From NCBI RefSeq assembly GCF_001677475.2, contig NZ_CP015229.1: a stretch of DNA of 64,000 nucleotides. One strand, written 5' to 3'. The notes under the pieces were generated by a model, which searched no databases, was not told the DNA's origin, and saw only the letters and a list, made by a program, of their open reading frames with translations. The DNA comes from Escherichia coli (GTDB lineage Bacteria; Pseudomonadota; Gammaproteobacteria; Enterobacterales; Enterobacteriaceae). Of the stretch, positions 56,037 through 56,819 are shown piece by piece (position 1 is the first letter of the stretch; each line of letters opens with the position of its first letter). Made by a program: the position numbers and the translations under genes.

Positions 56037-56819
56037 ATGAGCTTTTCTATTGAAGATTTTTCATTAGATTTTTTTTCATTACATAACAAGGTGGCCATCG
56101 TAACTGGGGCCGCGGGTGAACTGGGGAGAGGCTTATGCTCGGCTCTGGCCAAAGCAGGGGCTAATCTGTTGTTGGTAGACATCAAAGAGACTGATAATAA
56201 ATATTTAAAGCATTTAACTCATGAAGGCGTTGAAGTTGAGTTTATGACAATAGACATAACAAAACCTGATGCAGCATGCACAATTATTAATAGGTGTCTG
56301 GAGCGTTTCGGTCAGTTAGATATTCTGGTCAATAACGCGGGCGTGTGTAACATTAATCGTCCTATCGATTTCAATCGAAACGACTGGGATCCGATGATTA
56401 ATCTCAACCTGAATGCTGCATTCGATATGAGCCAGGCCGCATTGAATATATTTGTCCCGCAAAGAAAAGGGAAAATTATTAATATGTGTTCCGTATTGTC
56501 ATTTCATGGGGGACGTTGGTCGCCAGGGTATGCGGCGACTAAACATGCTTTAGCGGGGCTGACCAAAGCGTATGCCGATGATTTTGCGGAATATAATATT
56601 CAGATTAATGGTATCGCCCCAGGATATTATGTGAGTGAAATGACCGCTATTATTTATAATAACCCTAAAATAAAAGAGTTAATAAAAGGGCGTATACCGG
56701 CTCAACGCTGGGGAAGGGCACAGGATCTTATGGGCGCAATGGTGTTCCTCGCCAGTGCCGCTTCAGATTATGTCAATGGACAACTATTAGTCATTGATGG
56801 TGGATATTCAATTCGTTAA
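56037..56819 (+). CDS. Short-chain dehydrogenase/reductase (SDR) family oxidoreductase
   Basis: ORF 56028..56819; TGAAGELG Rossmann motif, NNAG, catalytic YAATK; low GC; start choice between 56028 and 56037 uncertain. Confidence 0.75.
   Translation: MSFSIEDFSLDFFSLHNKVAIVTGAAGELGRGLCSALAKAGANLLLVDIKETDNKYLKHLTHEGVEVEFMTIDITKPDAACTIINRCLERFGQLDILVNNAGVCNINRPIDFNRNDWDPMINLNLNAAFDMSQAALNIFVPQRKGKIINMCSVLSFHGGRWSPGYAATKHALAGLTKAYADDFAEYNIQINGIAPGYYVSEMTAIIYNNPKIKELIKGRIPAQRWGRAQDLMGAMVFLASAASDYVNGQLLVIDGGYSIR

Follow-up and report, generated by a model that had tools for sequence, protein, structure and literature searches.

The stretch of Escherichia coli DNA analysed here, called the window below (64,000 nucleotides; contig NZ_CP015229.1 of assembly GCF_001677475.2), carries on its plus strand, at positions 56037-56819, a gene for a short-chain dehydrogenase/reductase (SDR) that is the subject of this work. 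The gene is Z1533/ECs1275 of O-island 47 (OI-47, S-loop 71) of E. coli O157:H7 and is already known; ECs1275 appears in the literature as a 'putative oxidoreductase' (PMC1635569). OI-47 is a 31.7-kb island with open reading frames (ORFs) z1528-z1556 (PMC8565820). The match to O157:H7 strains, EDL933 among them, with 100% coverage and 96.5% identity places the locus in this island, and the 11.4 kb from the EAL-domain gene to an ORF of 207 amino acids have 96.5-98.5% DNA identity to E. coli genomes with the same gene order. This order is pgaABCD-dgcT-pdeT-fidL-grvA-SDR-loc6, the product of the EAL-domain gene being PdeT, and the locus lies between dgcT and ycdU. The SDR protein is 98% identical in amino acid sequence to E. 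coli cluster P0001, whose O157-type representative differs from the window protein by few substitutions, such as T52P and R160G.

A sequence-only reading of the window had described a low-GC SDR gene located between a ToxRS-like pair and a fimbrial operon, on the strand opposite to the fimbrial genes. The 'ToxRS-like pair' is GrvA/FidL and the fimbrial operon is loc6, and the description is borne out on all these counts. The gene has 41.8% GC versus 48.7% for the whole window, with 34% in the neighbouring regulator genes and 45-51% in the fimbrial genes, and it is convergent with the fimbrial chaperone gene at 56965-57654 on the minus strand.

Coding Sequence and Transcription Unit

The six-frame ORF list of the window gives a plus-strand frame of 56028-56819, in which the coding sequence is placed at 56037-56819 (783 nt, 260 amino acids). 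This start is supported by sequence comparison over the upstream ATG at 56028 because RefSeq has a coding sequence of exactly 783 nt, named 'SDR family oxidoreductase', in E. coli O157:H16 Santai, because the orthologues are all 260 residues long with alignments beginning at the Met of 56037, and because a Shine-Dalgarno-like AAGGAG read from the sequence (56020-56025, plus strand) is found 11 nt before that codon. The ATG at 56028 is just 2 nt from AAGGAG and is not conserved among orthologues. Matches to Pfam are far beyond chance (adh_short_C2 PF13561, E=1.8e-52; adh_short PF00106, E=1.9e-50), and the scores for PF00106/PF13561 are 178.7 and 171.5 bits versus cut-offs of 27 and 26.6. The protein has the classical SDR layout of about 250 residues in a single domain, with one adh_short domain at residues 21-261. 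ORF 56037-56819 is confirmed as a real and intact short-chain dehydrogenase gene.

Several observations indicate that the gene is functional. Between the orthologues of E. coli, Pseudocitrobacter and Serratia the proportion of synonymous differences (pS) is 0.77-0.81, which is saturated, versus 0.09-0.11 for nonsynonymous differences (pN), giving a pN/pS of about 0.13. The frame is full-length in all the sequences inspected from E. coli (the window, Santai and the cluster representative), Pseudocitrobacter and Serratia. These comparisons show strong purifying selection across the three genera, so the SDR gene is not a pseudogene. A phosphotyrosine peptide of Z1533, modified at Y201, was detected in the phosphoproteome of enterohaemorrhagic E. 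coli (EHEC) (PMC3681748), indicating that the protein is made in this pathotype. The searchable literature on Z1532/Z1533/ECs1275 yielded only a gene table and this phosphoproteome list, with no functional study of Z1533.

Upstream of the gene lies an AT-rich intergenic region of 689 bp (55348-56036; 32% GC) common to the SDR gene and the divergent grvA-like gene. A promoter scan for sigma-70 gave no plus-strand site upstream of the SDR gene and only minus-strand sites near 55420-55454, fitting grvA. The region is not conserved between E. coli and Pseudocitrobacter, save for the ribosome-binding region and a stretch of about 36 nt on the grvA side. A riboswitch or small RNA within it was considered and rejected, there being no Rfam match at E<=1 and no fold beyond that of shuffled sequences (z=+1.0). 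The sequence-only reading had also placed a small ORF ahead of the SDR gene. This frame of 49 codons (55771-55920, plus strand) is open in the window but is cut short in two other E. coli strains, Santai with a stop at codon 13 and 23S01245-7 with one at codon 28, and its region has no homologous DNA in Pseudocitrobacter or Serratia; it is judged not to be a gene and was discarded as a leader or partner of the SDR gene.

Downstream, the SDR gene and the loc6 chaperone gene that converges on it are separated by a hairpin at 56848-56893 (-30.2 kcal/mol, z = -2.84), whose inner stem of 11 bp lies at 56860-56887. This may be a terminator, although only the minus strand has a U-run after it and a simple terminator scan gives no call there. 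In Serratia, a weak terminator-like hairpin is found between ycdU and the SDR gene. The gene looks monocistronic in both the E. coli and the Serratia arrangements, since it has its own ribosome-binding site, the 689-bp AT-rich region upstream and the hairpin downstream in E. coli, together with the hairpin after ycdU in Serratia.

Sequence Motifs and Catalytic Residues

Motifs were compared in an alignment of 19 sequences (A1) and, for the glycine motif, across the 120 best database homologues. The glycine-rich dinucleotide-binding motif at residues 23-30 (56103-56126, plus strand) reads TGAAGELG. Classical SDRs carry TGxxxGxG, while TGxxGxxG is the pattern typical of extended SDRs; the motif of Z1533 fits the latter and departs from the classical TGxxx[AG]xG, having a Glu where the second classical glycine is expected. 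This TGAAGELG-type Glu is found in only six of the 120 homologues, all of them island-type sequences, the rest being TGGN[ST]GLG-like. The sequence-only reading had called Z1533 a classical SDR with Rossmann and YxxxK motifs. Its assignment to the SDRs and both motifs hold, but the glycine motif of the Rossmann fold is atypical; as TGxxx[AG]xG is not matched, the sequence is better described as an SDR that is classical in length and architecture but not in its glycine motif.

The tetrad residues Asn124 (56406-56408), Ser152 (56490-56492) and, in the YxxxK segment Y165-A-A-T-K169 (56529-56543), Tyr165 and Lys169 are all encoded on the plus strand in columns that are invariant in the 19 sequences, which places Z1533 among the SDRs. 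The NNAG segment after strand beta-4 (residues 99-102) and the PG motif after beta-6 (Pro195-Gly196), both expected of an SDR, are likewise invariant. Strand beta-2 ends in LLLVD (56166-56180, plus strand), with Asp48 at its last position; most YgcW-like relatives have IPS[FI] there. In SDRs an acidic residue at the end of beta-2 usually marks a preference for NAD(H) over NADP(H).

Relationship to KduD, YgcW and FabG

Sequence and structure comparisons relate Z1533 to dehydrogenases of sugar acids. Its best NCBIfam match is KduD (PRK06935, 296 bits), with gluconate 5-dehydrogenases next. Its best sequence match in the PDB is KduD of Pectobacterium (4Z9Y, 197 bits), ahead of gluconate 5-dehydrogenases and DhuD, FabG structures being weaker at 155-165 bits. 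A Foldseek search with the AlphaFold model also puts the Pectobacterium enzyme on top (40% identity, TM~0.8); a hydroxysteroid dehydrogenase of E. coli comes no higher than rank 23 in this search and is 29% identical. The KduD of Pectobacterium carotovorum (2-dehydro-3-deoxy-D-gluconate 5-dehydrogenase; PDB 4Z9Y/4ZA2) is the best characterised and solved relative of Z1533. The two have the same fold and tetrad, but differ in the glycine motif, and Z1533 scores under the KduD equivalog cut-offs (NF005390, 296.5 versus 369; TIGR01832, 250.1 versus 338.85; NF006528, 229.1 versus 430). The genomic context of KduD is absent too: the 50-64 kb part of the window has no kduI and no hexuronate or pectin genes, and neither have the compared loci L001 and L006, the latter from E. 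coli Santai.

Among the genes of E. coli, the core gene ygcW comes closest, with 55% amino acid identity over the full length and about 70% nucleotide identity over two thirds of the gene; a large set of YgcW-like proteins is 53-59% identical to Z1533. Since ygcW is present in nearly all E. coli and island-bearing strains hold both genes, Z1533 is a paralogue and not an orthologue of ygcW. YgcW of E. coli K-12 shares with Z1533 the N-terminal FSxDFFSL, the tetrad and the WSPxYxATKHA segment. It differs in having the classical TGGNSGLG and no Asp at the end of beta-2, in the substrate-loop region (residues ~198-220) and in its location within a carbohydrate-type cluster, ygcWUSRQ / yqcE-ygcE.

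FabG/CylG-type reductases belong to the same superfamily, and one of them is encoded by OI-47 itself, the ketoreductase ECs1285. Z1533 is only 26% identical to this protein, and it is the island ketoreductase, not Z1533, that has FabG and CylG as top solved relatives, CylG ranking third. Z1533 also misses the FabG equivalog cut-off (TIGR01830, 196.3 versus 297.75). It should not be annotated as KduD or as FabG.

Distribution and Genomic Context

Past the end of the window the island continues with the two-partner secretion genes otpAB and then with a fatty-acid/polyketide-like cluster, the lipid cluster below, which ends at ycdU and codes for AcpS, the ketoreductase (KR), FabZ, an acyl carrier protein (ACP), an aminomethyltransferase (AMT), two ketosynthases (KS), an ABC transporter, a LolA-like protein and a malonyltransferase (MCAT). 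A full-length match to the SDR gene is found in 400 of 5426 complete E. coli genomes, with one copy in each. At least 80% of the segment from pdeT to the 207-codon ORF is present in 378 genomes and at least 80% of the lipid cluster in 380, so that within E. coli the SDR gene simply follows the island. Some islands are partial. Strains of O145:H28 have lost part of loc6 and kept the SDR gene. In 23S01245-7 (L024, 13448-14361) grvA is not annotated and most of the DNA in its place differs from the window: counted from fidL towards the SDR gene, ~550 nt have no match to the grvA region. In this strain fidL, the SDR gene and loc6 are intact. In about 14-15 E. coli genomes a part of the island is matched and a full-length SDR gene is missing; the one inspected, strain L26, matches pdeT-fidL-grvA only.

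Genomes outside E. coli tell more, and close orthologues are found there in two genera. That of Pseudocitrobacter (82% amino acid identity) stands in the order FidL-GrvA-SDR-loc6-207aa-otpA, with only otpA seen after loc6 and the 207-residue protein; two different left flanks indicate that the island starts at fidL in this genus. The orthologue of the Serratia fonticola group, a taxon assigned from flanking genes, is 80% identical and stands at the end of the series otpA-otpB-acpS-KR-FabZ-ACP-AMT-KS-KS-...-MCAT-YcdU-SDR; the DNA after it varies from strain to strain. Neither loc6 nor GrvA/FidL is found within 10 kb of the Serratia SDR gene or in the 6 kb upstream of otpA. The site after the Serratia gene is a variable insertion point. 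In one strain (L002, 11171-20783) it holds TraG_N conjugative-element genes, a gene for a 137-residue winged-helix regulator and a chaperone-usher operon unrelated to loc6 (29-32% amino acid identity), and in other strains nucleoside-utilisation genes.

More distant relatives live apart from the island. A Tenebrionibacter/Tenebrionicola protein of 67% identity, with a canonical TGGCGGLG, is encoded alone between gor and a nucleoside hydrolase/major facilitator pair, and neither this relative nor the YgcW family (53-59%) is tied to any gene of the island. The lipid cluster is found in many Enterobacterales, among them Kosakonia, Klebsiella, Mixta, Pantoea and Leclercia, and in Kosakonia, Klebsiella and an 81% locus (L025) it ends with MCAT-YcdU without an SDR gene downstream. 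The island is modular, and the SDR gene sits at one module junction in E. coli and Pseudocitrobacter and at another in Serratia. Because its contexts differ among Pseudocitrobacter, Serratia and Tenebrionibacter, and the cluster ends without it in Kosakonia and Klebsiella, the gene moves with the island family but belongs to no single module. The check proposed in the sequence-only reading, co-occurrence with the fimbrial and ToxRS-like genes, thus gives a divided answer: orthologues of at least 80% identity are confined to OI-47-type islands of three genera, but the modules that adjoin them differ and the 67% and 53-59% relatives are island-independent.

Serratia has the order ycdU-SDR and E. 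coli the order SDR ... ycdU, so that one is circularly permuted relative to the other. Judging from gene order, such a permutation would fit an element that was once circularised; no scars of circularisation were found in comparisons of the Serratia DNA past the SDR gene with the E. coli island or in the regions upstream of otpA.

Wider searches added few sequences. A scan of 100,044 species-representative genomes with the SDR returned only a 2.5-kb contig of a metagenome-assembled genome (99% identity) and two distant SDRs. The contig (L007; CAKVEW010000085.1, 2518 bp), assigned to an 'uncultured Clostridium sp.' in a gut metagenome of Hadza people, belongs almost certainly to E. coli and was binned wrongly. 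In the plasmid collection no true plasmid carries the gene; the two 98.8% matches are chromosome-sized or chromosome-derived records, NZ_CP134663.1 (4.9 Mb) and NZ_CP124742.1 (212,414 bp). The latter, of 212 kb, is part of an EDL933 assembly in which the chromosome record is shorter by a corresponding amount, and both plasmid labels look like labelling or assembly artefacts.

Proposed Function

We favour, with moderate confidence, the view that Z1533 is a cytoplasmic oxidoreductase of the KduD/YgcW branch, probably NAD(H)-dependent and acting on a small hydroxy/keto compound, that was acquired with the island and rides along as a passenger where two modules meet. The comparisons show a horizontally acquired and diverged paralogue of ygcW within the KduD/gluconate-5-dehydrogenase, or sugar-acid, branch, and the genomic contexts place it as a gene that travels with OI-47 without being integral to the fimbrial operon, to the GrvA/FidL pair or to the lipid-synthesis cluster. 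The 'hitch-hiking metabolic gene' of the sequence-only reading is the option that comparative genomics fits best. In the established SDR mechanism Tyr acts as acid/base, Lys and Asn relay protons and Ser stands at the substrate; by analogy, Tyr165 would be the acid/base, Lys169 and Asn124 the proton relay, and Ser152 would hold the substrate. The tetrad would interconvert a hydroxyl and a keto group with a nicotinamide cofactor, probably NAD(H) in view of Asp48 where strand beta-2 ends. As for the substrate, the sequence relationships may tentatively, and with more doubt than confidence, be read as pointing to a hydroxy/keto-acid that is small and polar, of the type of 2-keto-3-deoxy-gluconate.

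Some observations weigh against this view. Z1533 is below the curated cut-off of every named NCBIfam equivalog, so that its assignment to the sugar-acid branch is one by similarity only. The AlphaFold model is of moderate quality (pLDDT 75), with a confident Rossmann core and substrate loops below 50, and the glycine motif has a Glu at the second classical glycine. The close orthologues never occur outside OI-47-type islands, and the 400 E. coli genomes with the SDR gene track the 378-380 with the island; some functional tie of the gene to the island may therefore exist. The contexts of close orthologues come from three genera only, and in one of them, Serratia, the SDR gene starts just 130 bp past ycdU on the same strand.

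This last arrangement is an argument for a role of Z1533 as an auxiliary or tailoring enzyme of the lipid cluster, oxidising or reducing a group on its product or a precursor. The gene directly follows the last gene of the cluster in Serratia, both are part of one island in this genus and in E. coli, and the numbers of E. coli genomes with the SDR gene and with at least 80% of the cluster (400 and 380) are close. We nevertheless regard such a role as unlikely. The cluster has its own FabG/CylG-type ketoreductase and Z1533 is nearer to sugar-acid dehydrogenases than to FabG; the cluster does without an SDR gene after ycdU in Kosakonia, Klebsiella and L025; the SDR gene of E. coli and Pseudocitrobacter is 14 kb away from the cluster, with genes for fimbriae and two-partner secretion in between; and in Serratia the terminator-like hairpin separates the SDR gene from ycdU. 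A fimbrial role, in which the SDR would assist loc6 biogenesis, for instance by modifying the pilin or a receptor analogue, is hardly credible. Z1533 directly adjoins loc6 in E. coli and Pseudocitrobacter, but it is convergent and not co-oriented with it, it is a cytoplasmic enzyme, O145:H28 strains retain it after losing part of loc6, and the 80% orthologue of Serratia has no loc6 within 10 kb, which upholds the remark in the sequence-only reading that an SDR is not an obvious fimbrial accessory. To our knowledge, no SDR is known to take part in chaperone-usher assembly.

The sequence-only reading had also proposed that the SDR modifies a signal sensed by the adjacent regulators, an idea that found no support. 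In its fuller form, Z1533 would be paired with the divergent GrvA/FidL and would make, modify or destroy the small hydrophobic ligand predicted for FidL, such as a bile acid or steroid, or be a direct target of GrvA. The divergent order of GrvA and SDR is kept in E. coli and Pseudocitrobacter despite amino acid identities of 50-53% for the regulators and turnover of the intergenic DNA. Bile-acid 7-alpha-hydroxysteroid dehydrogenase is itself an SDR, and the KduD of E. coli reportedly reduces steroids. Partners of the FidL type are lipocalin-like and their prototype VtrA/VtrC binds bile salts (PMC9214523). These points are outweighed by the Serratia orthologue, which has no GrvA/FidL within 10 kb, by 23S01245-7, which keeps the SDR gene without an annotated grvA, and by the 14-15 E. 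coli genomes that match the island without the SDR gene, L26 having pdeT-fidL-grvA only. Moreover, Z1533 has no signal peptide and the sensing domains are periplasmic (PMC9214523), and no shared regulatory sequence is conserved in the intergenic DNA. The pairing is improbable to us, and decidedly so in the specific form in which Z1533 would be the metabolic arm of the sensor, converting a hydrophobic molecule, either from the host (bile acid, steroid) or made by the cyl-like lipid cluster of the island, to or from a form recognised by FidL. Were this the case, island metabolism would set the input to a regulator of LEE (the enterocyte effacement locus) as well as of acid resistance in EHEC, and the glycine motif of the island clade with the switch to Asp48 would mark a new function. 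That Z1533 is a decaying remnant or an inactive pseudo-enzyme carried by the island could be suspected from the Glu in its glycine motif. This is very unlikely in view of the full-length frame in the inspected orthologues and in 400 E. coli genomes, the pN/pS of about 0.13 at saturated synonymous sites, the invariance of the catalytic residues and the detection of the protein in EHEC (PMC3681748); the variant motif is itself conserved and fits the functional TGxxGxxG of extended SDRs.

In practical terms, the feature can be named Z1533/ECs1275 and its neighbours GrvA/FidL and loc6. The comparative data oppose a role in fimbrial assembly and give no support to one in GrvA signalling, which saves effort in functional work on OI-47. 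The analysis brings little new biology, as it concerns an annotated and unstudied ORF of a well-known EHEC island.

Neighbouring Genes and Other Features of the Island

The product of the gene at 54535-55347 (minus strand) is a GrvA-like membrane regulator of the ToxR family, orthologous to z1531/ECs1274, as judged from its Pfam Trans_reg_C domain and the literature. GrvA regulates LEE and gadE (PMC10877973). Next to it, at 54039-54530 (minus strand), lies the gene of a FidL/YqeJ-like lipocalin co-component, the orthologue of ECs1273, identified through the match of PF27292 (YqeJ_C) to the Pseudocitrobacter orthologue and through PMC9214523. Between E. coli and Pseudocitrobacter (L004, 7882-9184) GrvA is 50% and FidL 53% identical, while the SDR, loc6 and OtpA reach 72-89%; the low values agree with the description of such sensor pairs as a 'fast-evolving cassette' (PMC9214523).

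The loc6 chaperone-usher fimbrial operon (56965-62923, minus strand) codes for a pilin, a chaperone, an usher, an adhesin-like subunit of 444 amino acids and a second chaperone, and corresponds to ECs1276-1280 (bioRxiv 2020.04.13.038984). Directly upstream of its pilin gene is the ORF of 207 amino acids (62966-63589, minus strand; 32% GC), which has no Pfam or NCBIfam match, is annotated as 'hypothetical' in E. coli and is conserved at 56% amino acid identity in Pseudocitrobacter. It may be a regulator of the loc6 operon. The possibility that it is the counterpart of a 299-residue Serratia protein, encoded at the corresponding place upstream of otpA, was rejected, the two proteins being unrelated.

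In locus L006 (20027-33837) the lipid cluster includes the FabG/CylG-type ketoreductase, a GcvT-type aminomethyltransferase, a fused double ketosynthase, a second ketosynthase and an ABC exporter. This gene content resembles that of the cyl (granadaene) operon of streptococci, which has CylF, CylG, CylZ, AcpC and CylA in its conserved core (PMC6985545). No paper was found on the product of the island cluster. The gene ycdU is an orphan in K-12, whereas Serratia, Kosakonia, Klebsiella and L025 all have it at the end of the lipid cluster as its conserved last gene (L006, 33834-35596; L002, 8869-9870). In about 2245 E. coli genomes, including those of K-12 type, nothing but the final 344-529 nt is left of the malonyltransferase gene beside ycdU. 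Since this fragment adjoins the gene that ends the cluster, the dgcT-ycdU locus of K-12 looks like a deletion remnant of the island.

Elsewhere in the window, pgaA has a premature stop at 48027-48029 (minus strand), where Trp752 (TGG) is changed to TAG and the porin loses the last 56 of its 807 amino acids; the gene is full-length in E. coli Santai. Further low-GC patches are present at 20001-21000 (35%) and 38001-39000 (39%).

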